Shown here: piece after piece, positions 3,644 to 30,354 of the stretch
Numbering within the stretch: the first letter of the stretch is position 1
How the letters are laid out: the number at the start of each line of letters is the position of its first letter
IMG/VR virus record: IMGVR_UViG_3300010011_000004
Span: 21,788 to 85,787 of that record
Reading direction: 5' to 3' (one strand)
DNA: 64,000 nt
Source of the DNA: a virus
Lineage: Duplodnaviria; Caudoviricetes
Notes under the pieces: model-generated
Seen by the model: only the letters and a program-made list of their open reading frames with translations
The model's database searches: none
What the model was told of the DNA's origin: nothing
Program-made: the position numbers and the translations under genes

Positions 3644-5092
3644 CAAGAATTCTCCCATCCTCTATAGGTGGGAGATGAATTGCTGAATAGTTGACAAAAT
3701 ATAAAAATAATAATATAATAAGAATAGAAAGGTGGGTGAAAAAGTGATACGTTGCTTAAAAACTACATTCAAAACATCTAAAACCAATCTAAACAGATTA
3801 TATGAATGTAATCGTATATCAGCGCAAATATGGAATGATTGTTTAGATATTGCTAAACAATACTCTCTTGCTAATGATGGTAAATGGATTAATAAAACAG
3901 AATTACAAAAAGCATTAAAAAACAAATATCCACTACATTCTCAATCAATACAAGCAGTATGCCATAAATACTTATTTGCAAGAGACGCAGCACATAAAGC
4001 AAAACAACAAGGATTGGACAATAAATATCCTTATAAAAAGAAAAAGCATTATAATACTAAGTGGGCTAAAGATGGTTTCAAAATATATGATAATGGCAGA
4101 ATTGAATTAAGTATGGGAATATGGAATGGAAAAAGACAACAACCTATTGTAGTGTATGTTAAAGAATTGCCGATTGGTAAAATAAAAGAAATTGAATTAA
4201 TATATGACAGAGGATTAAAATTATCATTAGCGTATGAAAATGGATTAATTGAAAGCATAAATAATAATAAAAACATAGCAGGGATAGACGTAGGAGAAAT
4301 ACACACAATTAGTTCATATTGTAAAAATGGTAATGCAATTATAATAACTGGACGTAAAGCAAGAAGTGTAAAAAGATTAAGAAATAAAAAGATAGCAGAA
4401 TTACAAAGAAAAATGAGCAAATGTAAGAAAGGTAGTAGAAAATGGAAAAAGTACAATAAAGCAAAGCAATATATATTATCTAAATCAGACAAACAATTAA
4501 CCGACATACTTCATAAAACCACAAAGCAATATGTAGATTGGTGTATTGAAAATAAAGTAAAAGAAGTAGTGATAGGTGATATTGAAGGAGTACAAAGGAA
4601 TACTAAGAAGAAAAGAAATAGGAATACTAACCAAAAATTAAGCCAATGGCAATTTGGCAAATTATATAAATATTTGGAATACAAACTAAAAGCAAAAGGA
4701 ATAAATATAATCAAAATAAACGAAGGATACACAACACAAACATGTCCTGTTTGTGGTAGAAGGAATAAAACTTCTACAAGAAATTATGTATGTAAATGTG
4801 GATATAAAGAGCATAGAGACATACATGGAAGCAAAAATATATTATCTAAGTATAAATATAATGATATAAGGTACTTAGGAGAAACAAAAGAAATAAAGTA
4901 TCTACGTATTGCTTAGGCAAGAAGTAGTAGAAGGTGTGAATTCACCCTATCGAAAGGTAGTTGCTTAGTTAGTGTATTGCTATACTTCCGTTGCTTGCAA
5001 CGAAGATATGTAACAACATATCTGTGAAGGTAGTAATACATGATGCTAAGAAACTCCAACCTCTAAGCGAAGCGTAGGTTGGAGAGGTTCAT
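3644..5092 (+). mobile_element. IS200/IS605-family (IS1341-type, tnpB-only) element 1
   Basis: Left-end hairpin caagaattctccc...gggagatgaattg after TCAG; right-end hairpin ctccaacc-tctaagcgaagcgta-ggttggag ending in ttca; no tnpA. End coordinates are good to about 1-2 nt. Confidence 0.9.
3732..4916 (+). CDS. tnpB: TnpB RNA-guided endonuclease
   Basis: RuvC-I GIDVG, RuvC-II region VIGDIE, zinc finger CPVC...CKC, RuvC-III HRDIHGSKNI. Confidence 0.92.
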   Translation: MGEKVIRCLKTTFKTSKTNLNRLYECNRISAQIWNDCLDIAKQYSLANDGKWINKTELQKALKNKYPLHSQSIQAVCHKYLFARDAAHKAKQQGLDNKYPYKKKKHYNTKWAKDGFKIYDNGRIELSMGIWNGKRQQPIVVYVKELPIGKIKEIELIYDRGLKLSLAYENGLIESINNNKNIAGIDVGEIHTISSYCKNGNAIIITGRKARSVKRLRNKKIAELQRKMSKCKKGSRKWKKYNKAKQYILSKSDKQLTDILHKTTKQYVDWCIENKVKEVVIGDIEGVQRNTKKKRNRNTNQKLSQWQFGKLYKYLEYKLKAKGINIIKINEGYTTQTCPVCGRRNKTSTRNYVCKCGYKEHRDIHGSKNILSKYKYNDIRYLGETKEIKYLRIA

Positions 5093-5110
5093 TAGTTTAC
5101 AGACGACCAC
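4917..5110 (+). ncRNA. TnpB omegaRNA (reRNA) scaffold plus flank-derived guide, element 1
   Basis: Structured 175-nt stretch between the tnpB stop and the right end. In characterised TnpB systems the guide is the flanking sequence (here tagtttacagacgaccacat). Confidence 0.7.
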
Positions 5111-5124
5111 ATATAGTATATAAT
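5096..5124 (+). promoter_or_regulatory. sigmaA-like promoter TTTACA-N17-TATAAT for the replication operon
   Basis: tttaca gacgaccacatatagta tataat. Confidence 0.65.
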
Positions 5125-5190: not shown

Positions 5191-6156
5191 TTGGACGGAA
5201 TAAAGGAAGAGAGTATTGGTAAAAATGCAGCTGTATTGCTAGAAAAAATCCATTCATTGTGGGTCGAAAAATATCGACCCAAAAATATTAATGAATTAGC
5301 TGCTAGTAAAGAAATTAAAAGATTTCTAACAAAAGTAATTGCTGATCAAGATATTCCACATATTCTTCTGCACGGAAAACCTGGTACGGGCAAAAATTCC
5401 ATTGTTAACATTATTATTAATAACATTAATTGTTCAAAACTTATTATCAATGCTTCTGAAGAGAGAGGTATTGATACAATACGTGACAAAGTAATGGCAT
5501 TCGCTAATTCTTCTGCTTGGGGCAATAAGCTAAAAATAATCGTGTTAAATGAAGCCGATGGTCTTAATTATGTCGCCCAAGATTCTCTACGCGAGTTAAT
5601 GGAAACATCGAGTAAATATTGCAGGTTTATTTTAACTTGTAATTCCATTAACAAAATCAATGAAGCAATTAGAAGTAGATGCGTTGAATTTGAAACACAT
5701 GTTGAACTATTAGATGCTGCTAAAAGGTTAGTTGAGATTTTAGAAGCCGAAAACGTTGAATTTGACGAAGATTATATCATCGCTGTAGTCAAGAAATATA
5801 ATTGCGATTTACGCAAAATAATCAATGAATCACAGAAGCTATATAATACGCATGGTAAATTAACTAGATCCATTTTAGAATCAGATTTAGTTGATCGTTA
5901 CGATAAATTATTCGACGATATTTTTACAAAAACCACTACTGTTAAAGATATAGCTAATGCTACTAAAAAATATATTTTTGATGAGAGTATATATACATCG
6001 CTTAAAGATTACTTTATTAAGAAGTATGAAGATTTACCAGATGCTATTATTATAATTGCTGAATATGCTTATAAATCGCGAATTGTTTTAGATAAGGATT
6101 TGGTGTTTTTAAGTTGTATTCTTGAATTAAAGGAAGTTATTAATAATAAATCATAA
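5191..6156 (+). CDS. Clamp loader ATPase subunit (RFC small / T4 gp44-like)
   Basis: WVEKYRP, Walker A GKPGTGK, INASEERGIDTIR, SRC motif; TTG start after AGGAGG. Confidence 0.92.
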   Translation: MDGIKEESIGKNAAVLLEKIHSLWVEKYRPKNINELAASKEIKRFLTKVIADQDIPHILLHGKPGTGKNSIVNIIINNINCSKLIINASEERGIDTIRDKVMAFANSSAWGNKLKIIVLNEADGLNYVAQDSLRELMETSSKYCRFILTCNSINKINEAIRSRCVEFETHVELLDAAKRLVEILEAENVEFDEDYIIAVVKKYNCDLRKIINESQKLYNTHGKLTRSILESDLVDRYDKLFDDIFTKTTTVKDIANATKKYIFDESIYTSLKDYFIKKYEDLPDAIIIIAEYAYKSRIVLDKDLVFLSCILELKEVINNKS

Positions 6157-6172
6157 TAGGAGGAATGATTAA

Positions 6173-7228
6173 ATGAATACATATGAAGCATTAATCAGAA
6201 CTTTAAAGTATCAAGGTTGGATATCCAGTCCAAGAGGGCAAGAGATAAGAGAACTACTTGGTCGTGATTTAATAGTTACTGATCATGATGTATTAATCGA
6301 TTCCGTTCATAGAAATACAGTTGATCCAACGACTCCAGAAGGTAAATATTTAAGAGCAGAATTTATGTGGTATATGTCTGGTAATTTAGATCCAGATTAT
6401 ATATCACGTTTTGGTAAGATGTGGAATTCGCTTAAAAATGTAAACAGTTATTCTTCTATTCAAGCGTTTGTAAATAAAGTTAATTCGAACTATGGTTATC
6501 ATGTTTTTTGGAAACCAGTTATTGAAGCACCTATCTATAAATCTGGAATAATGCATGATATTAAAAATAGTCCTTTTGAATATGTGATAAAAACATTAAG
6601 CAAAGATATATTTAGTAGACAAGCTATAATACAATACACACTTTCTAATATATATGAAGAAGGTGTTAATGATTTTACATGTACGCAAAATCAGCATTTT
6701 TTAGTTAGGAACAATTATCTTTATAATCTTGTGCATATTAGATCTTCTGATGCTGTTAAAGGATTAACTTTTGATATTCCTTGGTGGGATATAGTTGGTC
6801 AATTCGTTGCCGGAACATTGAATGTCAATTATAATGGTCTTTATGTATTTATTGGTAGCGCACATTTTTATGAAAAAGATCTAGATCTGATAAATAATCT
6901 TTTGGAAGATGGAGTAAAATGGCGTGGATTAATATTAAGACCAAAGTGTGAATTAATTGATAACATGAAGAAAATTATAGATAGTATGTGTGAATATGCA
7001 GTTGCAACGTTTAATCGTCAGGTATATACAGATATATTACTGCTTAATGATTATTATTTTAGATTAGTTAATATACAAAAATCTGGTAATATTTCACTTA
7101 AAGATATAATAACTTCTTATTTACATATTGCTAGTAAATTTGTAGACTTAACCACAAATTATGTTGTAGATAATGCTACATGTGAGCATTTTAATAATGT
7201 GTTATTTGATTCTATTTTTTGTTATTAA
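6173..7228 (+). CDS. Thymidylate-synthase-fold enzyme, most like dCMP hydroxymethylase (T4 gp42-like)
   Basis: NSNYGY, SRQAI, DFTCT (catalytic Cys) and RSSDAVKGLTFD parallel T4 gp42 NSNYGW, DFMCT and RSNDVVFGFRND; Asp sits at the dUMP/dCMP discriminating position. Confidence 0.72.
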   Translation: MNTYEALIRTLKYQGWISSPRGQEIRELLGRDLIVTDHDVLIDSVHRNTVDPTTPEGKYLRAEFMWYMSGNLDPDYISRFGKMWNSLKNVNSYSSIQAFVNKVNSNYGYHVFWKPVIEAPIYKSGIMHDIKNSPFEYVIKTLSKDIFSRQAIIQYTLSNIYEEGVNDFTCTQNQHFLVRNNYLYNLVHIRSSDAVKGLTFDIPWWDIVGQFVAGTLNVNYNGLYVFIGSAHFYEKDLDLINNLLEDGVKWRGLILRPKCELIDNMKKIIDSMCEYAVATFNRQVYTDILLLNDYYFRLVNIQKSGNISLKDIITSYLHIASKFVDLTTNYVVDNATCEHFNNVLFDSIFCY

Positions 7229-7267: not shown

Positions 7268-8053
7268 ATGACAGAAAAAATAATATTAAATTCTGATGGT
7301 ATAAAAAGCTTAAAAAATTTATTATCTTTATGTCCAGATACGTTCTCTAGTGTACCTGTAAAATTTATTAAGGAAGATGGGGTAAGTTTTATATCGATTG
7401 AAGTAATCGATATAAATGGAGATATAGTATTTTCTGGAAAAACTTTAATTGACGATATAGCAGATATTGAAGATAATTCTGGCTTAATAATAAGATTACC
7501 GCTTAACCGAGGATTAATAAATAATATACTTTCAAATTTTGAAGAATTGATCATAACAAAAAATAAGATTACTGCTAAAAGCCCAAATAAAAAATTGACA
7601 ATGTCGTTATTTTTGATAGATGAGAACGATATTTTTGAATTTCCGCATACAAACACAGGGCTATACGAATTAGCAGTAACGGAAAACTCAGCCGAAAATT
7701 CAAAATTTGTAGCTTTCGACCCAGATTTAGAACAAATAAAAGAATTACTTGATACTATCTCATTTTTTTCAGATTTAGAGCTAATAGAATTTAAAGAAAA
7801 AAATAATAAGCTTATTATTACAAGTGGAGATATAATAGGAAATGAATTTGAATTTAGATTTGATGTCGATGTTGAACCTGGATTTACATGTAAATTTGAT
7901 ACAAATTTAGTAAAAGTTTTAAGTAAAGTTATAAAATACAAAAATGATGATTCATATGGAATAAATTTTCTTATAAGTGATTTGCTGTTCGGTATAACAT
8001 TAGAAAATGATAAATCACTTGTTACTTTAGCTGTTACTGCCAGAAGAGACTAA
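7268..8053 (+). CDS. Probable DNA sliding clamp (gp45/PCNA-like)
   Basis: 261 aa, acidic and beta-rich; lies between clamp loader and RNase H. Called from size and synteny. Confidence 0.55.
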   Translation: MTEKIILNSDGIKSLKNLLSLCPDTFSSVPVKFIKEDGVSFISIEVIDINGDIVFSGKTLIDDIADIEDNSGLIIRLPLNRGLINNILSNFEELIITKNKITAKSPNKKLTMSLFLIDENDIFEFPHTNTGLYELAVTENSAENSKFVAFDPDLEQIKELLDTISFFSDLELIEFKEKNNKLIITSGDIIGNEFEFRFDVDVEPGFTCKFDTNLVKVLSKVIKYKNDDSYGINFLISDLLFGITLENDKSLVTLAVTARRD

Positions 8054-8069
8054 TTATAACTTAACACTA

Positions 8070-8098
8070 TTTACATTAAAATGGTAATATTATATAAT
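8070..8098 (+). promoter_or_regulatory. sigmaA-like promoter TTTACA-N17-TATAAT
   Basis: tttaca ttaaaatggtaatatta tataat. Confidence 0.6.
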
Positions 8099-8150
8099 AT
8101 AAGAGTAGCCGATTGGTTACTCTTATATTTTTAATTAAAGGAGAACACAT

Positions 8151-12386: not shown

Positions 12387-13019
12387 ATGACAAGATTTGA
12401 AAGCATTATCAATTACATTCTTTCATCAGATACAGATGCTAGCAAACGCGTTATTAATTTCATCGATATTGATGATACACTGTTTAAAACAGGCGCTAAA
12501 GTTAAGGTGTTAGATAAAGACGGAAATGTAGTTACTGAATTAAATTCTGAAGAATTTAATACTTACAAACTTAAACCAGGAGAACATTACGATTTTTCTA
12601 ATTTTTTAGATTCAGATATATTCTTTAATACAGCTAAACCAATAAAATCTGTTTTAGATAAAATAAATATGTTGTTGAATAATGCAAGAAACAACAGAAT
12701 AATATTTTTAACAGCTAGAGCTGATATGAAAGATAAACAAAAATTCCTCGATACATTCAGAAAATATGGTATACCAGTTGACAATAAAAATATAGTGTAT
12801 ATTGAAAGAGCTGGAAATTTAAACCTTAAACCATCAGAAGCCAAAAAAATAATAGTCAGAAAATATATTACGAATAGTGATTATGATATCGTTAGATTGA
12901 TAGATGATTCCGAAGATAATCTATCAAAATTTTTGGAGTTAAAGGAAGAATTTCCAGATAAAAAATTTGAGGCGATTAGAGTAACAAAAGATGGTAAGAT
13001 GGTCAAGTATAATAAATAG
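12387..13019 (+). CDS. HAD-superfamily phosphatase/nucleotidase
   Basis: DIDDT (motif I), LTAR (II), IDD (IV). Confidence 0.75.
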   Translation: MTRFESIINYILSSDTDASKRVINFIDIDDTLFKTGAKVKVLDKDGNVVTELNSEEFNTYKLKPGEHYDFSNFLDSDIFFNTAKPIKSVLDKINMLLNNARNNRIIFLTARADMKDKQKFLDTFRKYGIPVDNKNIVYIERAGNLNLKPSEAKKIIVRKYITNSDYDIVRLIDDSEDNLSKFLELKEEFPDKKFEAIRVTKDGKMVKYNK

Positions 13020-14867: not shown

Positions 14868-15290
14868 ATGAATAGAAAAGAAGCAATGTTGTGTCTATTA
14901 GCTTCTGTCAACGGTGAGCCATTTACTTCAACTCAACTTCAAAAAGCTATGTTTCTAATAGACCAAGAGATTGGAGATATAATAGAAGGAAATAGATATA
15001 ATTTCCAACCATATGACTACGGACCTTTTGATAAAGATGTCTATGCCGATATAGAAAAATTAGAAGATGAAAAATTAGCGATGATATTTGAAACTGCTAG
15101 ACACATGGTGTATTATCCAACGCCAAAAGGTATTGTTGTAGGCAAAGATTTATTGGAAGAATTACCGAAAGAAATAGCTGAATATATTAAAAAAATAGCT
15201 GAATATGTATTGAGTCGAAGCTTTAAAGAATTGGTTTTAGAAATATGTCAGGCTTATCCCGAAATGGGAAAAAATAACATTTTTAATTAA
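14868..15290 (+). CDS. Panacea/SocA (DUF4065)-like winged-helix protein, copy 1
   Basis: TQLQKAMFL...YNFQPYDYGPFDKDVY resembles the DUF4065/YwgA-type KLQKxxY...YGP motif. Confidence 0.6.
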   Translation: MNRKEAMLCLLASVNGEPFTSTQLQKAMFLIDQEIGDIIEGNRYNFQPYDYGPFDKDVYADIEKLEDEKLAMIFETARHMVYYPTPKGIVVGKDLLEELPKEIAEYIKKIAEYVLSRSFKELVLEICQAYPEMGKNNIFN

Positions 15291-15572: not shown

Positions 15573-15610
15573 ATAATTAGAAGGTGATAATAATTAATGG
15601 AGGAATAAAA

Positions 15611-16087
15611 ATGGAAGAAACTACTGATAAGAAAAAGGTTGGCAAAATCGATAGGATAGATGCAATGTTATTGTTATTATCTTTTGGCGAGGGTAAACCG
15701 TTTAGTGCAAATCAGCTTGATATTGGGATGTTCTTAGTCGACCAAAAACTTGGAGATAAATACTTAAACAATAGGTATAATTTCAGGCCTGAAAAATATG
15801 GCCCTTATGATATCGTAGTTAACATCGAGGTAGAAGAACTAGTTCAAGATGGATCAGTAAAAAGAACAGAGAGAAGGAAAGGTTATAAAGGTTTTTTAGC
15901 ATTTTATCGCATAAAACCAGCCGGCGTTAGAGAAAGCGAAAAAATATTAGAAAGAACTCCGCCTAAAGCCGCAGAACAGATCAAAAAAATAGCGGAGTTT
16001 GTTTTAAGTAAAGATGATCTAGATTTAATTTATTATATCGCTAAAAATTATCCTGAGATGGGGAAATATACTCCTTTTGCACCGTAA
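15611..16087 (+). CDS. Panacea/SocA (DUF4065)-like protein, copy 2 (ATG at 15611)
   Basis: Paralog of 14868: GKPFSANQLDIGMFLVDQ...RYNFRPEKYGPYD...YPEMGK. Confidence 0.55.
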   Translation: MEETTDKKKVGKIDRIDAMLLLLSFGEGKPFSANQLDIGMFLVDQKLGDKYLNNRYNFRPEKYGPYDIVVNIEVEELVQDGSVKRTERRKGYKGFLAFYRIKPAGVRESEKILERTPPKAAEQIKKIAEFVLSKDDLDLIYYIAKNYPEMGKYTPFAP

Positions 16088-18780: not shown

Positions 18781-20088
18781 ATGTCTGTTATAAATGATCA
18801 AGTTTCTTTTAAAAATTTGTATAAGGAATTGTTCGGCGAACCTTCGCCATTAAATGAAAGAAAAGATATAGATGTAAATGCTTTAGAAGTTATGAAGCTA
18901 AGATATTTTATTGATTTACCTGACGGACAAAAAGAAAGTAGCTTTTCACAGCTTTGTAGAAGGGTCGCCAGAGTAGTTGCTTCAGGTGAATATAGAGATG
19001 ATATGCCAGATGAAGATTTAAATTACATACTTAATATTGAGGAAAGTATATATAACGATATGATGAGCCATAGATTTTTATTTAACTCTCCAGCGTTATT
19101 TTCTGCTGGTACTGGTATAAGTGCTAATAAAAATCTGAGCAATTATCTCTATAAGCCGCTTACCCGTGGTAATTATTCTGAAATAAGAGAAACATATGAA
19201 AAAATATCTAAGAATTATAGCAGAAACCAAATGATGTTCGCATGCTTTACTATTGAAGTTCCAGATTCGATCGAAGGAATATTTGACAGCGTAAAAAATG
19301 CTGCCATTATTTCTAAATTTGGTGGTGGTGTAGGAGCTAATTTTGGATCATTGAGAGAAAAAGGAGCTCCAATAGCTGGTGGTTGTGGTGGTCAAGCTTC
19401 TGGTCCTGTATCTTTCATGCAGAACTGGAATACTATGGGATCGACTGTCGTACAAGGTGGTAAAAGACGAGCTGCTCTAATGGGTATGCTCAACGTTCAT
19501 CATCCTGATATCGAAGAATTTATCTCATGCAAAGAAAACGACGGCAATTTAAGTTATTTCAACATTTCGGTCGCTATAGATGACAAATTTATGAATGCCG
19601 TTAAGAATGACGAGATGTATGATCTTATCTCTCCTAATACTGGTAGAGTTGTAAAGACCGTGAGAGCTAGAGATCTTTGGAAAAAAATATGTACCAATGC
19701 CCATAAAAATGGAGATCCAGGTGTCTTCTTTATTGACATAGCTAACCGGGATAACCTGCTTAAAAATGATAGAAAATACTATATTGAATCGACAAATCCA
19801 TGTTTAACCGGAGATACTTTAGTAATTACAAAAGATGGGGAAAAACGAATTGATAAAATAACGACTGAAGATTATGTTTTAACAGCTGATACTGAAACAA
19901 AAGAGTTATCATACGAAAAAGTTGAATTTAGTGGTTGTACTAAAAGAAATGCAAACATAATAGAAATAGAATTAGAAGATGGAAAAATTTTAAGATTAAC
20001 TCCAGATCATAAAGTTTTTACTGAGAACCGAGGGTATGTAGAAGCTAGTCAGCTTTTAGATACTGATGTTATAGTTATAGTCGAATAG
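18781..20088 (+). CDS. nrdJ: Class II (B12) ribonucleotide reductase N-terminal half fused to IntN of a split intein
   Basis: FLFNSP, ACF, GGGVG, VVQGGKRRAALM, GDPGV, then ESTNP|CLTGDT (intein block A) and TPDHKV (block B), then stop. Confidence 0.92.
   Translation: MSVINDQVSFKNLYKELFGEPSPLNERKDIDVNALEVMKLRYFIDLPDGQKESSFSQLCRRVARVVASGEYRDDMPDEDLNYILNIEESIYNDMMSHRFLFNSPALFSAGTGISANKNLSNYLYKPLTRGNYSEIRETYEKISKNYSRNQMMFACFTIEVPDSIEGIFDSVKNAAIISKFGGGVGANFGSLREKGAPIAGGCGGQASGPVSFMQNWNTMGSTVVQGGKRRAALMGMLNVHHPDIEEFISCKENDGNLSYFNISVAIDDKFMNAVKNDEMYDLISPNTGRVVKTVRARDLWKKICTNAHKNGDPGVFFIDIANRDNLLKNDRKYYIESTNPCLTGDTLVITKDGEKRIDKITTEDYVLTADTETKELSYEKVEFSGCTKRNANIIEIELEDGKILRLTPDHKVFTENRGYVEASQLLDTDVIVIVE
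19801..20085 (+). other. Split intein N-fragment (IntN, 95 aa)
   Basis: Begins with Cys1 right after NP; block B TPDH; ends NRGYVEASQLLDTDVIVIVE-stop. Confidence 0.9.
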
Positions 20089-20158
20089 TGTTATAACACA
20101 TGGATTCATACAAAATTAAACTTAATTATATAAGATCTTATAATTAGGAGAGATTTGT

Positions 20159-20908
20159 ATGAATCCATGGAATATTAAAATGAATATAGATTTTGATCCT
20201 GAAATTAAAAAAAGAATATTAGAATATTATAATAAAATTATTAGTTATGGCAGGAGTTCAAAAAGAAAAGAAGCTTTAAAATATATTCAATTAGATTCAG
20301 AAGCAGTTGAATATTTAACTAAAAAATATGTTCATGAACAATATGGTTATAAAATGTTAGGAAGAGCTTTAGATTTATCATATTCTAGAGTTAGAGTGTT
20401 AATAAAAGATTATTTGAAAATTGAGGTTAGAACAGGATATAAGGTTGTTACGGATAGAGTTAAAAAGTTTAGATCAGACAGAGTTAAAGGAGATTTAAAT
20501 CCATGGGCCCATATATTACCACATCAGATAAAAAATCAAAGAAGTATACAGGGTTTTTATATTAAAAAAGATGGTACTAAAATATGGCTTAGATCAACAT
20601 GGGAGTATATATATGCTAAATGGTTAGAAAAAAATAATATTAATTTTACTGTAGAAACATTTAAATTTAAACTTTCTAATAATGAATTTTATATACCTGA
20701 CTTTTTTATTTATGATTCATTTGGAAATATAGATTTTATAGTTGAAATAAAAGGTTATAAATCTAGAATGTATAAAACTGAAATGTTTAAAAATGAATAT
20801 CCTGAGTATAAACTGATTATTATTACTAATATATCTTCATATTGTAAAAACTATAAAACGGAGGTACAAACATGGAGAAATCTTTGTCAATTAAATCATG
20901 TAAAATAA
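20159..20908 (+). CDS. Free-standing endonuclease between intein halves (HTH + PD-(D/E)xK, TnsA-N-like)
   Basis: RSTWEYIYAKWLE...YIPDFFI...IVEIKGY; N-terminal HTH-like segment. Confidence 0.75.
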   Translation: MNPWNIKMNIDFDPEIKKRILEYYNKIISYGRSSKRKEALKYIQLDSEAVEYLTKKYVHEQYGYKMLGRALDLSYSRVRVLIKDYLKIEVRTGYKVVTDRVKKFRSDRVKGDLNPWAHILPHQIKNQRSIQGFYIKKDGTKIWLRSTWEYIYAKWLEKNNINFTVETFKFKLSNNEFYIPDFFIYDSFGNIDFIVEIKGYKSRMYKTEMFKNEYPEYKLIIITNISSYCKNYKTEVQTWRNLCQLNHVK

Positions 20909-22563
20909 AAAGGATTAGAGTAGTAGAAAATGAAGATGTTTATGACATTAGAGTTAAAAAGAATCATAATTTTTTTGCTAATGGAATTTTAGTACATAAT
21001 TGTGGAGAGCAGCCATTACCAAATGATTCAAGCTGCAATTTAGGATCGATTAATTTAGCTGAATTCGTCGATCCAACGTATGGATTTAATTATAAAGAAT
21101 TTGAAAACCAGATCTTGAGGGCGATGTATTATTTAGATCTGGTTATAGACGTAACTAGTTATCCACTTAAAAAAATAGAGAAGAATACAAAAGATATCCG
21201 TCCGGTTGGATTGGGTATTATGGGTTTGGCTGATGCTTGCATTTTGATGGGTATTAAATACGGATCGAGAGATTTTGAGATGTTCGTCGAAAGAATAGCG
21301 ATAACATTAGCTTCTTGTTCGCTTATTGCTACGGTATCAATGGCAGCAATGAAAGGACCATATCCTCATTTTGATGATGAATTCGGTGAGAGAAAATACC
21401 TGAACAGTGTGCTTAAAGCTGAAGATATAACTGAAGATAATATAGATGATTTAATAACAAATAAGATATATAATGATACTGATTTTCCTATATCATTTAA
21501 AAAAGCAATTATAACCAGCTATTTAGACATTAAATCTAAGGCTGGAATTAAAAAAGCTGTAGAATTTTTTAAGCATCTATTTTCAACTAAACCAGGTAAA
21601 GGAGGATTGAGAAATTCTAGAAGATTATCAATAGCTCCAACAGGAACGATATCATTGCTTTTGAATACAAGCTCTGGTATTGAGCCTAATTTTTCATATG
21701 AATGGACACGACAAGTTACTTTATCTCCTAATGAAAAACGACAGCTAACGTATTATCATAGGTTTTATACTCCGCAGAACAAAGAGAAAGGCTTATTAGT
21801 TACAGCGCATGATATATCACCTGAACAACATGCTAGAGTAGTGTCTATATTTGCTCCTTATATTGATAGCGCTATAAGTAAGACGGTTAATATGCCGCAT
21901 GATGCGACTGTAGAAGATGTTGAAAAGGTATATGAATACTGCTTCGAACACGGAATAAAAGGAATTACAATTTACAGAGATGGTTCTCGAGATGAACAGC
22001 CGATCAAAAAGATTGAGACAGAAAATGATCCCGGTAAGAAGGCGAAAATCAAATCAAGACCTAAATTTATGCAAGGAGTTACTACTAAATCAGATTCGCC
22101 ATACGGATCGATTTATGTAACAGCTAATTTTGATGATGAAGGTAAAATGTTTGAGACGTTCATTTCTGCCGGCAAGTCCGGGAGTGTATCCAAATCTATA
22201 ACTGAAGCTTTAAGCAGAGTAATAAGTTTAGCTTTAAGGGCAGGTGTAGATATAGAAGATCTGATTAGCACTATTAATAATATATCGGGTTCTGAAGTTT
22301 GGGTATATGATTCTTTAGACGGCGAAGAGATCGTAGTTAAAAGTATTCCAGATGCTGTAGGAAAAATGCTTAGGGATTTAAATAATTATTACACAATGCT
22401 TTTTAAGAAAGATTCAACAGCTAGAAGCAATCAACCTACCAATTCAAATAACAGTAAGACTTTTGGCCATTATCGCAGTTCCTGCCCAGAATGTGGATCA
22501 TTTATGATACCCGCATCTGGATGCGCTGTTTGTCCTAATTGCGGATATTCGGATTGTAAATAA
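20872..22563 (+). CDS. nrdJ: IntC (43 aa) fused to class II RNR C-terminal half
   Basis: Own RBS GGAGG. VYDIRV...NFFANGILVHN|CGEQPL...CNLGSINL, IAPTGTIS, SGIEP, SKTVN, TSCPD-like domain, C-terminal CPEC/CPNC. Confidence 0.92.
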   Translation: MEKSLSIKSCKIKRIRVVENEDVYDIRVKKNHNFFANGILVHNCGEQPLPNDSSCNLGSINLAEFVDPTYGFNYKEFENQILRAMYYLDLVIDVTSYPLKKIEKNTKDIRPVGLGIMGLADACILMGIKYGSRDFEMFVERIAITLASCSLIATVSMAAMKGPYPHFDDEFGERKYLNSVLKAEDITEDNIDDLITNKIYNDTDFPISFKKAIITSYLDIKSKAGIKKAVEFFKHLFSTKPGKGGLRNSRRLSIAPTGTISLLLNTSSGIEPNFSYEWTRQVTLSPNEKRQLTYYHRFYTPQNKEKGLLVTAHDISPEQHARVVSIFAPYIDSAISKTVNMPHDATVEDVEKVYEYCFEHGIKGITIYRDGSRDEQPIKKIETENDPGKKAKIKSRPKFMQGVTTKSDSPYGSIYVTANFDDEGKMFETFISAGKSGSVSKSITEALSRVISLALRAGVDIEDLISTINNISGSEVWVYDSLDGEEIVVKSIPDAVGKMLRDLNNYYTMLFKKDSTARSNQPTNSNNSKTFGHYRSSCPECGSFMIPASGCAVCPNCGYSDCK

Positions 22564-23020: not shown

Positions 23021-25915
23021 ATGCGTGATATAATATATAAATGTAAATATATTTGGAAAGGTCGGGTTTTCATGGTTAGAAAAATCAGTTTTTTACCGAC
23101 AAAGGTAAAATATAACAGTAAAAATAAATGTATTGATATGTATTATAGGACGAAAGGGGCAAACAAGTTAAATCATGTTTCTGTTCCTTTCGATCATTAT
23201 ATATACATGTCGACAAAGTTTAGAAAATACGGCATTAATGATGTTGTGTATAAACATTTAAACACAGATGAAGATATGGTAAAAGTATATATCAATCCAG
23301 ATGAAGCTTATAATCTTTACAAAACATCTAATATGCAGCATGGTGAAGCTGATGTATCGCCAGAACAAAGATTTATGTGCGATACATTTTATGATGTTGA
23401 ATTTCCATCCAGTATATCTCCAAGAATATATTATTTGGATATTGAAGCGTATGTTACTGACGGAAATATGCCAAGTTTTAAGAATAATTTGGCAGATATA
23501 TCTGCTATCACTATATATGATAATTACACAAATAAATATTATTGCTGGTTCTTGGTGCCGAAAAATATAACTAAAGATGTGGCGCCAATGCAGTCAGATA
23601 TAGAAAATGAAGTTAAAGAGTACGGAGACGCTGAAATATATCTATTTAATAGTCCAAAACCACTGCTTGTTTCTTTCATTCAATTTGTTGTTAAGGAATG
23701 CCCAGATATTATCACTGCATGGAACAGTAAGTTTGATATTCCATACATATGTCGTAAAATTATTGATTATGTTGGTGTGGAAGGATTGAGGATGTTAAGC
23801 CCGTTTGGTACGATCAGCTCTAAAATCAAATATGCTTTAGAAAATGATACAGATTTGGAAATTGATACTGTTATTCCTGGTATTGATATTATAGATATGC
23901 TTACACTTTATAAAAAATATACTGATACTGAAAAGCCTTCATATGCATTGAAATTCATAGCTGAAGAAGAGCTCGGCGAATCAAAATTGGTAAATGGTGA
24001 TGATGATGAAGATTACGTCGATCTCTCTGATCTGTATTTAAATAATTTTGTTAAATTTTGTAAATATAATGTACAAGACGTCAGATTGCTAACTATGCTA
24101 GAAGACAAATTAAAAATACTTAATCTCGCCATAACTATCAGAAATATATCCAAGATAAATTTCCAAGATATATTCTTTGAGACCAGAATAATAGACAACT
24201 TGTTGCTGATGGAAGCAGTCAGACGTAGAGAAACAGAAGGTTGGAGATATGTTTTACCTTCCAAGCCGAAGTATATAACTAAGGGCAAATATCTCGGCGC
24301 ATATGTAAAACCACCGTTGAAGGGTTTGTTTAAATGGGTATCAGATCTAGATTTTAAATCACTGTATCCATCTATAGTTAAAACATTTATGCTTTCTTCT
24401 GAGTCTTTAGTAGGAAAAATAGACTGTTATCAACAAGTTGTTGCTTATACAGTAGCGAAAGTATTAGGCATCAACGATTTATTATATATTAAAGAAGAGT
24501 TATTACCAAGATATTTGCAATATGATGTCAGATTACTTAAAGATATAGAAAATGATGATATAGATTTACAGTTAATCGACAAAAAGAATATTGATATGGA
24601 AGTTGAGTATTACGAACTCTATAAAAATCGCGGTTTTCCGACAAAATTCGAAAATCTGAAAGATCTAAGGAAATGGTTGAAAGATAATAACTATTGCCTT
24701 CTGCCAAATGGTTTAATAGTCGATCAAAATAAGAGCGATGCTATTATCGCTAAAATTATCGATGATATTATGAAGTCAAGAGAGAAATACAAGAAACTCA
24801 TGCTAAATCATTTAGCGAATGGTAATACTAATCTTTATAATATATATAATACATATCAAACTGCTGTTAAAATCATTAATAATTCGGTATACGGCGCAAC
24901 AGCCAATGAAAATTTCAGACTTTACAATTTGGATATATCAGAAGGTATCACAACATCAGGACAGCTACTTATTCGTACATGTACTTATCTGATGAATAAA
25001 TATTTAAACAATAAAGCTCAGTATACGGAAGAAAAAGATTTTGTTATAACAAATGATACTGATTCAATCATATTCACTATAGCCGATTTTGTTAAATATG
25101 ATACAACAGTTAGAGATCCGGAGGTCTTAAAAGAGATAGCTTCGATATCGAAAGAATGTCAAGATTACATTAATGAGTCGATGCTCTGGATTTGCAAAGA
25201 TTTGTTTTATAAATCCAACATCAATAAATCTAACAATTTCTTGACTATAAAGAACGAATGGCTGGCTGACACCGGAATATTTGTAGCTAAAAAAGCATAT
25301 GCTATTCACATTATATTCAATGAAGGAGTACCAGTAGATAAGTTGAAATCGGTCGGGATATCACTTAGAAGGTCCAGCACACCTAAAGCGCTAAAACCGT
25401 TTATTGAGAAAGTTTTATTAAGTATATTGCAGTTAAAAAGTAAGGAAGAAATTGACGCAATAATTATAGAAGAATGTAATAAATTAAAGAATGAATATCA
25501 TATAAAAGATATTGCTCTTCCTATATCTGTGAATAATATCGATTCATATGTTAAAAATCTGCCGGTACATATAAGAGGAGCTAGAGTGTGGAATGAATAC
25601 TTTGCTGAAAAAGAAACCGATAAAATAAAGACCGGCAAAGTTAAATACATATACGTTAAGAAGTGGAAAAATCCTGAGTTAAATATAAAGAAAGAGTATG
25701 TTATTTCAGTTCCTGATGAAGGTTGTTATTGGCACCTGATCGCTGATAAATTCACTGTAGATTATGATAAGATGAAAGAAAGGCTGATCATTAAACCAGT
25801 AGAATCATTTTATAATGCATTAAACTGGCAGCTGCCATTTGAAGTTACATCGAACAGCAGCGGTGTATTCAATAAAATAGCTGGTAAGAAGCGTAATAAA
25901 ATAAAATTAATCTAG
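23021..25915 (+). CDS. Family B DNA polymerase (T4 gp43-like); likely start at ATG 23072
   Basis: Exo I LDIE, Exo II WNSKFD, Exo III YNVQD, motif A DFKSLYPS, B KIINNSVYG, C NDTDS. Confidence 0.95.
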   Translation: MRDIIYKCKYIWKGRVFMVRKISFLPTKVKYNSKNKCIDMYYRTKGANKLNHVSVPFDHYIYMSTKFRKYGINDVVYKHLNTDEDMVKVYINPDEAYNLYKTSNMQHGEADVSPEQRFMCDTFYDVEFPSSISPRIYYLDIEAYVTDGNMPSFKNNLADISAITIYDNYTNKYYCWFLVPKNITKDVAPMQSDIENEVKEYGDAEIYLFNSPKPLLVSFIQFVVKECPDIITAWNSKFDIPYICRKIIDYVGVEGLRMLSPFGTISSKIKYALENDTDLEIDTVIPGIDIIDMLTLYKKYTDTEKPSYALKFIAEEELGESKLVNGDDDEDYVDLSDLYLNNFVKFCKYNVQDVRLLTMLEDKLKILNLAITIRNISKINFQDIFFETRIIDNLLLMEAVRRRETEGWRYVLPSKPKYITKGKYLGAYVKPPLKGLFKWVSDLDFKSLYPSIVKTFMLSSESLVGKIDCYQQVVAYTVAKVLGINDLLYIKEELLPRYLQYDVRLLKDIENDDIDLQLIDKKNIDMEVEYYELYKNRGFPTKFENLKDLRKWLKDNNYCLLPNGLIVDQNKSDAIIAKIIDDIMKSREKYKKLMLNHLANGNTNLYNIYNTYQTAVKIINNSVYGATANENFRLYNLDISEGITTSGQLLIRTCTYLMNKYLNNKAQYTEEKDFVITNDTDSIIFTIADFVKYDTTVRDPEVLKEIASISKECQDYINESMLWICKDLFYKSNINKSNNFLTIKNEWLADTGIFVAKKAYAIHIIFNEGVPVDKLKSVGISLRRSSTPKALKPFIEKVLLSILQLKSKEEIDAIIIEECNKLKNEYHIKDIALPISVNNIDSYVKNLPVHIRGARVWNEYFAEKETDKIKTGKVKYIYVKKWKNPELNIKKEYVISVPDEGCYWHLIADKFTVDYDKMKERLIIKPVESFYNALNWQLPFEVTSNSSGVFNKIAGKKRNKIKLI

Positions 25916-26469: not shown

Positions 26470-27003
26470 ATGGTTAATGATGCAACAAAATCATACATAG
26501 TTATTGATGATTACAAAGTAGCTAGCACTAAAAAATTATCACCTAATTTTATGGCCAAAGATTTCAGATGTGGTCATTGCGGTACATTAGTATTAAATGA
26601 GGATCTACTTAACAGACTAGAAAAATTAGTATCTAATATTGGACCGATTAAAATAATACAAGGCTATCGATGCCCTGATTTTAATAAAGTCATTGGATCA
26701 TATGAAGATAGCCCACATGTCAAAGGTGAAGCCGCTGATTTTATTATAAATAGTAAATTGAATGGATTTGAAACGTTTCTTAAAACTAAAAATATTTTTA
26801 ATCATGTTGGATTTAATCAATTTAGATTCAATAGAAAGCTTTCTTATATACATGTAGATGTAGGAGAAAAACCGTTATATTGGATGTCGTATTACGATGA
26901 TTATCTGAAAAAGAGAGTTTATATTTATTTTAATACTTTAGATCACATGATTGCTGCCATGGAAAAAGATAAGCAGCATGATTGGTTTAATATGGTGATA
27001 TAA
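26470..27003 (+). CDS. Peptidase M15 family Zn peptidase (cell-wall hydrolase)
   Basis: GYRC..FN..IG...SPH..GEAAD...YIHVD. Confidence 0.85.
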   Translation: MVNDATKSYIVIDDYKVASTKKLSPNFMAKDFRCGHCGTLVLNEDLLNRLEKLVSNIGPIKIIQGYRCPDFNKVIGSYEDSPHVKGEAADFIINSKLNGFETFLKTKNIFNHVGFNQFRFNRKLSYIHVDVGEKPLYWMSYYDDYLKKRVYIYFNTLDHMIAAMEKDKQHDWFNMVI

Positions 27004-27465: not shown

Positions 27466-27843
27466 ATGAATTATAAAAGATTAATCGCTGCTTTAAAATT
27501 TAAACAGCAAAGAAACAGCACATACTTTATTGTAAAATCGAAATTTGAATATAAAAAACAAGAGTTTAAAATATATCCTGGAGGTTTATTATTATTCACC
27601 GATATTCCAGCAGGAGATACCGATTATGTATTTATGAGCATAATATATAAAACTAAACCTCTAAGAAGTAATATTATTATATCAGATAAAGACGAAGGTT
27701 TAATTAAGCTTAAATACACTGATTTGGCTAATTTAATTATAGCTAAAAAAGTAGAAGCATATTATACTGATAAAAATGCCATGGATAGAGAAATTTATGA
27801 TATTATTAATGAAAATAAAGGAGAGATGAATAATGGAGGTTAG
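27466..27843 (+). CDS. Hypothetical protein, 125 aa
   Basis: Intact ORF within the operon. Confidence 0.6.
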   Translation: MNYKRLIAALKFKQQRNSTYFIVKSKFEYKKQEFKIYPGGLLLFTDIPAGDTDYVFMSIIYKTKPLRSNIIISDKDEGLIKLKYTDLANLIIAKKVEAYYTDKNAMDREIYDIINENKGEMNNGG

Positions 27844-28432
27844 CTTGTTACATTTTACTCCACTTGATATAGCTTTAGAAGCTGGATTGATCTGCACTAA
27901 TACAGAAAATAAAAAGGATAGATATAATCCGGTGGAATTTTTATTGAAACTAGTTTCTCAAGGACACGAGAGTGTTATTGAGCATATCAATTACAATTTT
28001 CGTATAAGCGGAGTATCTAGAGCATTATTGCAAGAATTAGCCAGGCATAGACATATTTCTTTAAGCGTACAATCGACTAGATGGGCTTTAAATAAAATAA
28101 CTGACAACGAACGAATATTTTCAGTAAATGAAGAATCGACGGATGCTGATAAAAAACAACTATTAGAAAATCTTAAAAAAGTTTCAGACGCTTTAAATGA
28201 GCAAATAAAATACGCAGCACAACAAGGTATACCAAATGATATTTTAAAATATTATGTGCAAGAATCATTATCGACTAAATTAATGCTTACTTTAAACGCT
28301 CGTGAATTACGCCACATCTTTTCATTACGTACAAGCCAAAGAGCTTTAAAGGAATTTCAGTTATTATGTAGAGAATTATATAATCAATTACCAGATGATC
28401 ATAAGCAATTATATAAGGAGTTTTTTACTTAA
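27833..28432 (+). CDS. thyX: Flavin-dependent thymidylate synthase
   Basis: GHESVIEH, SRALLQELARHRHISLSVQSTR, NARELRH. Confidence 0.93.
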   Translation: MEVSLLHFTPLDIALEAGLICTNTENKKDRYNPVEFLLKLVSQGHESVIEHINYNFRISGVSRALLQELARHRHISLSVQSTRWALNKITDNERIFSVNEESTDADKKQLLENLKKVSDALNEQIKYAAQQGIPNDILKYYVQESLSTKLMLTLNARELRHIFSLRTSQRALKEFQLLCRELYNQLPDDHKQLYKEFFT

Positions 28433-28454: not shown

Positions 28455-29288
28455 ATGGCTGCATTAGATGTAATCAACTTAATCAATGTTGTGCTTAGTA
28501 AATATTTACCAATAACAGATGATAGATCTGTTAAATTCGGTGGTGTACCCTATCCAAAAAATGGTTGGGCTATATTTACATGCGGTGGACCTGGCTCAGG
28601 AAAATCATATACTATAAATAAGCAATTGATGATCGATGCTAAAGTTCTCGACAGCGATCAAATAAAAATGTTATATATAAAATTGCTTAAAAAAATAATC
28701 AGCAGCCCAAAAGTAGATGAAGAAACTAAAAAGCAGTTACTCGAGCCATTCGGTGGAAAAATACCAGATCCTAAAAATCCTAATGATATGGATACTTTAC
28801 ATAAGTTTACTAGCTGGAAAAAACATTTATTCAGTAAATCTTTAAGCAGCTTTATAAAGAGTAGCGCTAAGAATTTACAAAATTTTATCATTGATACGAC
28901 AGGCAATAACATTAATGAGATAGCATTAAATGCTACAATGTTTAAAAATATGGGCTATAAAGTTGCTCTCGTTTGGGTTATAACTAATATCGATTTAGCG
29001 AGAATTAGAAATAGAACTCGAGATAGGGTTGTACCAGAAGATTATCTTGAGAATATACATCATAAGATTATCAGTACTATACCAGCTGCTATAAGAAACG
29101 GCTTACTGAATGTTTTAGACGAGATATGGATAGTATTTAGTAAAGACAGCGAAGAAAGAGAATTCAGAAGTAGGTTTAAAGATACAGCGTTCAAATTAGA
29201 AAAAGTCAATGGTAAATTTATATTAACAGATGATATGCTTCAAAAAATAACACAGCATACTGGAGTGAAAGATAACAGCCATGAATAA
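28455..29288 (+). CDS. P-loop kinase (zeta-toxin/AAA_33-like)
   Basis: GGPGSGKS, DSD, IIDTTG, RNRTRDRVVP. Confidence 0.75.
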   Translation: MAALDVINLINVVLSKYLPITDDRSVKFGGVPYPKNGWAIFTCGGPGSGKSYTINKQLMIDAKVLDSDQIKMLYIKLLKKIISSPKVDEETKKQLLEPFGGKIPDPKNPNDMDTLHKFTSWKKHLFSKSLSSFIKSSAKNLQNFIIDTTGNNINEIALNATMFKNMGYKVALVWVITNIDLARIRNRTRDRVVPEDYLENIHHKIISTIPAAIRNGLLNVLDEIWIVFSKDSEEREFRSRFKDTAFKLEKVNGKFILTDDMLQKITQHTGVKDNSHE

Positions 29289-30354
29289 ACCGATAGAAAG
29301 AAAATATAACATTTACAAAAAAGATAAAAGTAATAACACAAATAAAAACAACAACATTATAACTAAAGTGCCGAATAATCCAGTGATGCTGAGCAAAGAA
29401 GATATATTTAATAAAATAAAAAATCTAATTTTGTCGCAGAAAGCCAATGACAGTTATATAGCTGAAGTTATTAATAAGTTGAATAGTATGGGTATCAATA
29501 ATTTTGTGGTAAAGACGGGTAAACAAATACACATTAAAACTGATGAGAATAGAGTTAAATTGTTGCAGCGTTTGGCCGAGAGTTTTGGAGGAAAGTATAT
29601 CGATAAGCCAAGCGGCATATCATCAGCCGGGTATGTTGAATTAGATAACGGTATTAAGTTGGTGGCTAAACCTAACAAAACTCACAGTGCTGGAATACTA
29701 AACGAAAAAATATTGGTCGACCATATAAATAAGTTATGCGCCAAAGGACCGATTAATATACGATTTATAGGCGAAAATAAAACTTTTGAATGTATAGGAG
29801 TTAAAAACTGTAAAGCGACCGGTACAGATGTTACTAATAGACGCAAAGCTGATCTAGTATTGCAAGGAATTAAAGATTATCCTATATCACTAAAGAAAGA
29901 TAACGCTGAAATTTGGGAGTCGGCTGATCAGTTTGCCGGAGCAAAAGCTAAAAAAATAATAGACAAATTAGTCAAAGAAAATAAAGTTGAATTGGAACTG
30001 ACTGATAAAGGTGTTTATAAGATAAAACCAAATGTAGCTTTTTATCCTACAACTGAAGAGAAAAGAGATTTGGTATTTGGTAGCGACATATTACCTAATG
30101 GTGCTGTCATTGAAAAGACATTTAGCGGCGATGAAATATATACTATGAATGATGATAGTTGGTTCGAAATACCAGTTACGTATATAATTACCAGCCTAAA
30201 TGATGTTGAAGGTCATAGGGATGTCGTGTTTTTAATTCGTAATGATTCATCTAGAAATTCAAAACATATCGGATATCCAGGTTTAAGAGTATTAGCTGTT
30301 TTTGAAAAACGACTGAATAAAAACGTTTTGATATATAAAGGCGATGTTGATTAA
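29281..30354 (+). CDS. Putative PD-(D/E)xK restriction-endonuclease-like nuclease
   Basis: GILNEKILVDHIN...KADLVL...ISLKK pattern, as in type II REase-fold cores. Confidence 0.5.
   Translation: MNKPIERKYNIYKKDKSNNTNKNNNIITKVPNNPVMLSKEDIFNKIKNLILSQKANDSYIAEVINKLNSMGINNFVVKTGKQIHIKTDENRVKLLQRLAESFGGKYIDKPSGISSAGYVELDNGIKLVAKPNKTHSAGILNEKILVDHINKLCAKGPINIRFIGENKTFECIGVKNCKATGTDVTNRRKADLVLQGIKDYPISLKKDNAEIWESADQFAGAKAKKIIDKLVKENKVELELTDKGVYKIKPNVAFYPTTEEKRDLVFGSDILPNGAVIEKTFSGDEIYTMNDDSWFEIPVTYIITSLNDVEGHRDVVFLIRNDSSRNSKHIGYPGLRVLAVFEKRLNKNVLIYKGDVD

Follow-up and report, generated by a model that had tools for sequence, protein, structure and literature searches.

The closest described relatives of the gene analysed here are enzymes of the thymidylate synthase (TS) superfamily that act on cytosine nucleotides. 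In the deoxycytidylate (dCMP) hydroxymethylase (dCH) of phage T4, gp42, Asp179 specifies cytosine, and the D179N mutant is inactive, its use of dCMP being abolished; Asp145, which precedes the catalytic Cys148 by three residues, activates a water molecule for its attack on the exocyclic methylene, and D145N is also inactive; and a Ser-x-Tyr motif holds the water that abstracts the proton (PMC6400193). In E. coli numbering, Lee et al. 2026 report that N177D denotes a dCMP substrate, that L143D/E accompanies hydroxymethyl rather than methyl products, and that D169N marks the newly found flavin-dependent 5-hydroxy-dCMP synthases (PMC13326640). A TS with N229D is cited in PMC13326640 and PMC8670742 as becoming a dCMP methylase. 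MilA, the cytidylate (CMP) hydroxymethylase of mildiomycin biosynthesis, owes its CMP preference to Ala176 and Lys133', where deoxy-specific enzymes have Ser and Arg, and its A176S/K133R mutant has lost CMP activity; it also has a five-helix C-terminal region that is distant from the active site (PMC5175136). In this work, we examine a gene at positions 6173 to 7228 of a 64,000-nucleotide stretch of viral DNA (hereafter the window), which is the last 64 kb of IMGVR_UViG_3300010011_000004, a single Caudoviricetes contig of 85,787 bp that has inverted terminal repeats and is rated 100% complete. The gene probably encodes a gp42-type deoxycytidylate C5-hydroxymethylase, that is, a 5-hydroxymethyl-dCMP (5hm-dCMP) synthase of the TS superfamily, and residues, structure and phylogeny give this enzyme assignment good support.

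A preliminary description of the window, made from its letters alone, had called the product a TS-fold protein. The open reading frame (ORF) is confirmed, and its protein matches the Pfam family PF00303 (Thymidylat_synt) with E 3.6e-12 and 46.4 bits, against a curated cut-off of 24.3, and PHROG_160 at 2e-28. The AlphaFold2 model, built from the alignment of homologues, has a mean predicted local distance difference test score (pLDDT) of 91.5 and a predicted template modelling score (pTM) of 0.92. When the sequence is searched against solved structures, MilA (6e-11) and T4 dCH (4.5e-6) are the best matches, and thymidylate synthases score 0.004 or weaker. In structure comparison, MilA comes first (Z 23.0, 259 residues aligned, covering the model from 1 to 351) and the dCMP hydroxylase of phage HY126 second (9iqc, Z 22.4); T4 dCH reaches Z 20.8 (213 residues, root-mean-square deviation 2.5, 24% identity) and ThyA enzymes about Z 20-21. 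Since all of these share one fold, Z alone cannot separate their activities.

MilA is thus the best match in both sequence and structure, and it has in common with our protein a five-helix C-terminal domain that is absent from T4 gp42. Both observations would suit a CMP hydroxymethylase like MilA or BcmA, whose ribonucleotide product would serve RNA or a small molecule and not DNA. However, the two residues that set the preference of MilA are Ser191 and Arg149 here (E. coli S167 and R126), which is the deoxy pattern and the very exchange by which MilA loses its activity on CMP; they indicate a predicted deoxyribonucleotide substrate. Moreover, the gene lies in a phage replication unit, and no MilB-like partner was detected. 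We regard a CMP enzyme as very improbable.

The remaining active-site residues distinguish the gp42-type assignment from the other known activities. The four motifs NSNYG (residues 104-108), DFTCT (167-171), RSSD (190-193) and GLTFD (197-201) are invariant in about 25 metagenomic homologues, and likewise in an alignment of 19 with 38-58% identity, which indicates that the gene is under purifying selection. The Asp in GLTFD and the gp42 motifs NSNYG, DFxCT and RSxD had already been picked out in the preliminary description, and all of them are there. For reference, we aligned T4 gp42, RB69 gp48, RB69 td, E. coli ThyA, SPO1 gp29, Xp12 and PaMx74, taken from public records. At E. coli positions 143/146/147/169/173/177, the residues are L C H D G N in ThyA (product dTMP, thymidylate), N C P D G D in Xp12 and PaMx74 (5-methyl-dCMP), D C N D G N in SPO1 gp29 (5-hydroxymethyl-deoxyuridylate, 5hm-dUMP), E C T N V D in RB69 gp48 (5-hydroxy-dCMP), and D C T D G D both in T4 gp42 (5hm-dCMP) and in the query with its family. 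Over the wider set of positions 92/94/126/143/146/147/167/169/173/177, the query equals T4 gp42, and across the diagnostic residues it differs from each of the other four types.

The TS catalytic set (E. coli Cys146, Glu58, Arg166, Ser167, Asp169, His207 and Tyr209) is present as C170, E63, R190, S191, D193, H231 and Y233 and is invariant in the family. The same holds for D201, the Asp in place of Asn177 that is associated with cytosine specificity, and for D167, the water-activating residue three positions ahead of the catalytic Cys, where ThyA has Leu and the methylases have Asn. S105-N106-Y107 forms the Ser/Thr-x-Tyr motif within the same NSNYG as in T4 (S94-N-Y96), and D193 keeps Asp169, the D169N mark of the hydroxylases being absent. 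With T4-like residues throughout, the protein has the complete signature of a hydroxymethylase for cytosine and deoxyribose and does not fit those of methylases, hydroxylases, dUMP enzymes or CMP enzymes. The case illustrates how the published rules for positions 143, 147, 169, 177, 167 and 126 allow an uncharacterised TS homologue to be matched with a product.

Asp at position 177, taken alone, would also fit a dCMP methyltransferase of the kind found in Xanthomonas phage Xp12, which would make 5-methyl-dCMP and give a genome with 5-methylcytosine (5mC), and the phage encodes a deaminase of the dCMP family, such as accompany methylases in 5mC phages (bioRxiv 2024.12.05.627091). We give this little credence, because Xp12 and PaMx74 have Asn143 and Pro147 where the query has Asp and Thr, they fall in a separate clade (99%) whose union with the query family is rejected (see below), the deaminase matches T4 cd best, and the genome has its own ThyX, which is dispensable for 5mC phages. 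A flavin-dependent 5-hydroxy-dCMP synthase (like RB69 gp48, DLP3 gp80 and HY126 AfhB), which would supply 5-hydroxycytosine for O-glycosylation, has Asp177, an acidic residue 143 and Thr147 in common with the query, and the HY126 enzyme is structurally close. Nevertheless, the protein retains Asp193 at the diagnostic position as well as Gly173 and Trp80, which are Val and Ala in RB69 gp48, and no glycosyltransferase or NDP-sugar genes were found in the genome, so that such an enzyme is highly unlikely here.

A phylogeny with gp42 and ThyA had been named in the preliminary description as a way to check the enzyme call. A profile search of 1.84 billion representative proteins yielded 4,846 relatives. 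When the best profile matches were aligned together with family members and references (168 sequences), 156 had the D-C-T-D-D signature, almost all of them top profile matches. Trees were computed with FastTree (105 rows) and with IQ-TREE under LG+C20 (38 rows). Both trees separate ThyA and the pair of dCMP methylases from the rest (99% support), make T4 gp42 the sister (89%) of a clade of 16 rows in which the query family lies, and recover the full-length family of the query as monophyletic (96-98%). The approximately unbiased (AU) test rejects forcing this family together with the methylases (p 0.004) and, equally, with ThyA (p 0.004). The branches of T4 gp42, RB69 gp48 and SPO1 gp29 are long, so the deep relations within the clade with an acidic residue 143 are unsettled. 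In the IQ-TREE result, Bacillus phage G gp319, which has the cytosine signature, groups with SPO1 gp29, which has the uracil signature (95%); this grouping hints that the Asp/Asn177 switch took place more than once inside that clade.

The same trees bear on the possibility of a dUMP enzyme, whether an additional thymidylate synthase or, like SPO1 gp29, a dUMP hydroxymethylase. Annotation pipelines label relatives of the protein 'thymidylate synthase', and a few close relatives of its clade are back to Asn177 (DCTDN and DCSDN rows). Yet Asp201 is invariant in the family, and the corresponding D179N change in T4 dCH kills the use of dCMP; positions 143 and 147 are unlike ThyA, the union with ThyA is rejected, and ThyX already supplies dTMP. 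A dUMP enzyme is therefore scarcely credible.

The genomic context is that of a replication gene. The hydroxymethylase-like gene starts 17 nt after the stop of the clamp-loader gene (stop 6156, ATG 6173) and sits inside a T4-type replication block that extends from the clamp loader through ThyX; the structural genes are T4-like as well (gp23 capsid, gp20 portal, prohead protease, sheath and baseplate). The gene order of the block recurs in related viral contigs, 89 kb and 179 kb in length, so that the gene is a stable part of the replication module of this lineage. A promoter-like site and a terminator-like hairpin flank the clamp loader, the hydroxymethylase-like gene and the following 261-aa ORF, which suggests that these may form one three-gene unit; promoter-like sites are no more numerous in the region than expected by chance, and this one is a promoter by inference only. 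The 261-aa ORF may occupy the place that the sliding clamp has in T4-like phages, by analogy of position. Searches of Pfam, PHROG and PDB found no match for this ORF, to a sliding clamp or otherwise.

ThyX, a flavin-dependent thymidylate synthase, provides an independent dTMP supply, and a dCMP deaminase lies just upstream of the window; the hydroxymethylase-like gene is the only TS-fold gene in the genome. The claims of the preliminary description that the gene is embedded among core replication genes and that ThyX covers dTMP supply are borne out, and its reading of the enzyme as dCMP-hydroxymethylase-like is supported by the cytosine-specifying Asp, the hydroxymethylase signature, the placement beside gp42, and the presence of ThyX and the deaminase.

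By homology with the ternary complex of T4 dCH, Cys170 would attack C6 of dCMP, while Asp201 would bind and protonate the N3/N4 face of the base and so choose cytosine over uracil. Glu63 would open methylene-tetrahydrofolate, a water held by Ser105 and Tyr107 would take off the C5 proton, and Asp167 would activate the water that attacks the exocyclic methylene, giving 5hm-dCMP and tetrahydrofolate; Ser191 and Arg149 would favour a deoxyribonucleotide. Within the replication module, the gene would be expressed together with the clamp loader. The 5hm-dCMP would presumably be phosphorylated by a host kinase or an unrecognised phage kinase and enter phage DNA as 5-hydroxymethylcytosine (5hmC), with dTMP being made separately by the T4-type dCMP deaminase and ThyX. 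Virion DNA carrying 5hmC is a reasonable expectation from the enzyme; complete cytosine replacement or further decoration would be another matter, as no recognisable gene supports either.

Several observations weigh against the proposed gp42-type hydroxymethylase and its modification of phage DNA. Hidden Markov model (HMM) searches of the complete genome in six frames found, as a dCTPase or a substitute for it, no MazG, trimeric dUTPase, dUTPase_2 (gp56, PF08761), PRA-PH, HD or Nudix protein, no deoxynucleoside monophosphate (dNMP) kinase DNMK (gp1, PF21448), no GT1, GT2, Glyco_trans_1_4, Glyco_tranf_2_3 or T4 beta-glucosyltransferase, and no carbamoyltransferase; an arabinosyl-transferase is likewise not recognisable in the complete genome. 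As a control, T4 gp56 matches dUTPase_2 and T4 gp1 matches DNMK in these searches, and phmmer with both proteins against all 555 six-frame ORFs gave nothing below E 0.3. The identity with T4 gp42 is only about 24%, and the gp42 branch is long; the residue rules are based on few characterised enzymes, and the discovery of 5-hydroxy-dCMP synthases in 2026 shows that the TS superfamily can surprise; and the protein has an extra C-terminal domain that is unexplained and has no counterpart in T4 gp42. In addition, GGCC is the most depleted of the 256 tetramers in the whole genome (28 observed against 57.6 expected, ratio 0.49) and CATG is also depleted (150 against 217, ratio 0.69), most other C/G palindromes being at expectation (ratio about 1), and this is not obviously predicted by complete cytosine protection. 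Such palindrome-avoidance statistics are ambiguous, and we weigh them neither way.

The same HMM searches detected no TET/JBP (Tet_JBP) protein or C5-methyltransferase. Dihydrofolate reductase (DHFR), which a hydroxymethylase could do without, was absent from the Pfam scans, made on part of the ORFs. The preliminary description had placed the decorating enzymes outside the window. None is recognisable inside it, and neither a transferase of the known families searched nor a dCTPase is recognisable in the rest of the genome. Its step from the enzyme to a cytosine-modified genome reaches further than these results, since no dCTPase, dNMP kinase or decorating enzyme was recognised. Divergent partner enzymes may be present among the many unannotated ORFs. 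The closest complete relative (89 kb) is equally without recognisable partner genes; in the 179-kb relative, an HD protein and a Nudix protein are present, and in a 60-kb relative a Nudix protein, and these are possible deoxynucleotide-pool enzymes.

The missing partners, the unexpected hydroxylase lately found in the superfamily, and the C-terminal domain with its unexplained invariant N341 and F345 could also be taken to mean that the protein makes a C5-modified cytosine nucleotide by undescribed chemistry, or has a mainly non-catalytic role in the replisome through that domain. We consider this rather improbable, because all catalytic and signature residues of a hydroxymethylase are intact and invariant, and the simplest reading suffices.

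Compared with T4 gp42 (PDB 1b5e, 6a9a), which has the same TS fold and motifs and, among characterised enzymes, lies nearest to the query in the tree, the residue pairs are E60/E63, S94-N-Y96/S105-N-Y107, D145/D167, C148/C170, D171/D193 and D179/D201, and the T, G, H and Y are also identical; T4-type replication genes and a T4-like dCMP deaminase occur in both phages. On the other hand, the query is 105 residues longer, has two insertions (about residues 88-103 and 113-133) and a five-helix C-terminal domain, and has Gln or Lys in place of R127. Genes 56, 1, a-gt and b-gt of T4 have no detectable counterpart, and dTMP comes from ThyX instead of the ThyA-type td of T4. MilA (PDB 5jnh, 5b6d) also has Asp at 143 and 177, a TS core with a five-helix C-terminal region and a similar length, but it belongs to bacterial secondary metabolism, whereas the query is a phage replication gene. 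The Xp12 and PaMx74 dCMP methylases, RB69 gp48 and HY126 AfhB have the fold, the catalytic Cys and Asp177 in common with the query, which fits neither group: the methylases have N143 and P147, and the hydroxylases have N169, lack G173 and W80, and work with flavin and O2.

The same D-C-T-D-D signature is found, at 25-30% identity, in Xanthomonas phage Xp15, Lactobacillus phage ATCCB, Bacillus phage G (gp319) and Ralstonia phage RsoM2USA, two of which infect Bacillota; where they have a C-terminal extension at all, its sequence is unrelated. For example, phage G gp319, of equal length, resembles the query only in the core (25% identity, E 4e-14), and no similarity is detectable between the C-terminal parts. 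Xp15 and phage G have a dCMP deaminase among the neighbours of this gene. In ATCCB (MK504445.1 34336-36240), the gene is directly upstream of an annotated beta-glucosyltransferase gene, and this pair suggests glucosyl-5hmC in a phage of a Gram-positive host. No biochemical characterisation of these four homologues was found, and a literature search for 5hmC in phages of Gram-positive bacteria gave nothing specific.

The preliminary description had supposed that the modified base could be new for a phage infecting Firmicutes; with the ATCCB and phage G genes at hand, this novelty was overstated. Asp177-type TS homologues are the domain most strongly associated with cytosine-modified viral contigs (PMC8670742), and since the signature is already very common in viromes, the gene in itself is unsurprising. 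It belongs to a known kind of enzyme, here in an uncultured phage lineage, and its unusual features are confined to the absence of recognisable helper genes and to a C-terminal domain like that of MilA. The point of interest is how a phage with this predicted hydroxymethylase gets by without the set of dCTPase, kinase and transferase that T4 has.

The C-terminal domain consists in the model of helices 258-279, 282-289, 292-304, 309-329 and 334-348 and ends in an NNxxFDSxF motif that is conserved in the family. The ThyA-type C-terminal tail, which seals the folate site, is absent; this helical domain of about 100 residues is a different one, and its equivalent in MilA lies away from the active site. 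By default, we ascribe to it a putative folding or scaffolding role, by analogy with MilA, in which truncation of this region affects only solubility; a docking function in the replisome would be speculation. A fuller picture, which is tentative and on the whole unlikely, would be that small digester phages with a T4-like core, possibly infecting Bacillota, carry 5hmC in their DNA without a known dCTPase, dNMP kinase or transferase, either as naked or partial 5hmC or with unrecognised enzymes for dCTP exclusion and decoration, and that the MilA-like domain docks the enzyme, co-transcribed with the clamp loader, to the replisome.

Metagenomes of anaerobic digesters and activated sludge from 13 studies contain DNA that is nearly identical to that of this phage; a megablast search of phage records with 20 kb of the sequence gave no near relative. 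If the proposed activity is true, this recurring phage and its relatives carry 5hmC, which would affect the evasion of restriction and CRISPR as well as the behaviour of the DNA in sequencing and cloning. As for the host, which had been taken to be a Firmicute, the seven closest genomic relatives of the first of two TnpB genes (53-69% identity) are all from Bacillota (Aneurinibacillus, Acidaminobacter, Niallia, Shimazuella and a Clostridiales metagenome-assembled genome among them). This agrees with a Firmicute host, as circumstantial evidence. The positions of all features are collected in the following table.

Features of the window and its flank (positions in the window unless marked; strand where given)
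Feature	Position	Strand	Remarks
dCMP deaminase	genome 19996..20574	-	just upstream of the window; best solved match T4 cd 1vq2, 3e-32
TnpB (IS605 OrfB / Cas12f-like), first copy	3732..4916
Promoter-like site	5096..5124	+	TTTACA-17-TATAAT, 11/12, ahead of the clamp loader
Clamp-loader AAA+ ATPase, gp44-like	5191..6156	+	immediately upstream of the hydroxymethylase-like gene
Shine-Dalgarno sequence	6158..6163	+	AGGAGG, 9 nt ahead of ATG
Predicted 5hm-dCMP synthase (TS-fold, cytosine-specific C5-hydroxymethylase)	6173..7228	+	351 aa, ATG start
Catalytic TS core, residues 1-250	6173..6922	+	E63, W84, S105-N-Y107, R149, D167, C170, T171, R190, S191, D193, G197, D201, H231, Y233
C-terminal five-helix domain, residues 258-351	6944..7225	+	model pLDDT 86-97
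261-aa ORF	7268..8053	+	immediately downstream; position kept in relatives (synteny)
Terminator-like hairpin	8096..8129	+	with T-run
Flap endonuclease (FEN)/RNase H	starts 8151		T4-type replication block
Mre11	starts 9230		T4-type replication block
Rad50	starts 10568		T4-type replication block
HAD phosphatase	12387..13019		stand-alone
Helicase	starts 13034		T4-type replication block
ORF	14868..15290		phrog_14939, N-terminal half
ORF	15584..16087		phrog_14939, N-terminal half
Ribonucleotide reductase	18781..22563	+	intein-split; nucleotide-supply gene set
Family B polymerase (PolB)	23021..25915
M15 peptidase	26470..27003		probable endolysin
ThyX	27833..28432	+	Pfam Thy1 6.8e-36; RHRxxS..SxR motif intact
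P-loop kinase (AAA_33/Zeta_toxin)	28455..29288		phrog_5268; directly after ThyX
357-aa ORF	29281..30354		phrog_12709, conserved; overlaps the P-loop kinase gene
TnpB (IS605 OrfB / Cas12f-like), second copy	43801..45048

The P-loop kinase that follows ThyX is a candidate nucleotide kinase. For both this kinase and the overlapping 357-aa ORF, the homologues are unnamed proteins from T4-like phages, which infect Enterobacteriaceae in the case of the kinase and Stenotrophomonas and Vibrio in the case of the ORF. We considered the two genes as a hydroxymethyl-pyrimidine DNA kinase module and rejected this, as the homologues are not from 5-HMUDK phages and there is no PDB sequence match. Protein-atlas look-ups for the pair of small ORFs that precede ThyX returned nothing of use.

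In addition, a stand-alone HAD phosphatase resembles the phosphatase half of polynucleotide kinase (phrog_415); with the P-loop kinase 15 kb away, the two genes may share between them a function like that of T4 Pnk. Two neighbouring ORFs that both match the N-terminal half of phrog_14939, a family of unknown function, look like a local duplication. Finally, the M15 peptidase, a probable endolysin, lies between the polymerase and ThyX, among replication and nucleotide genes.

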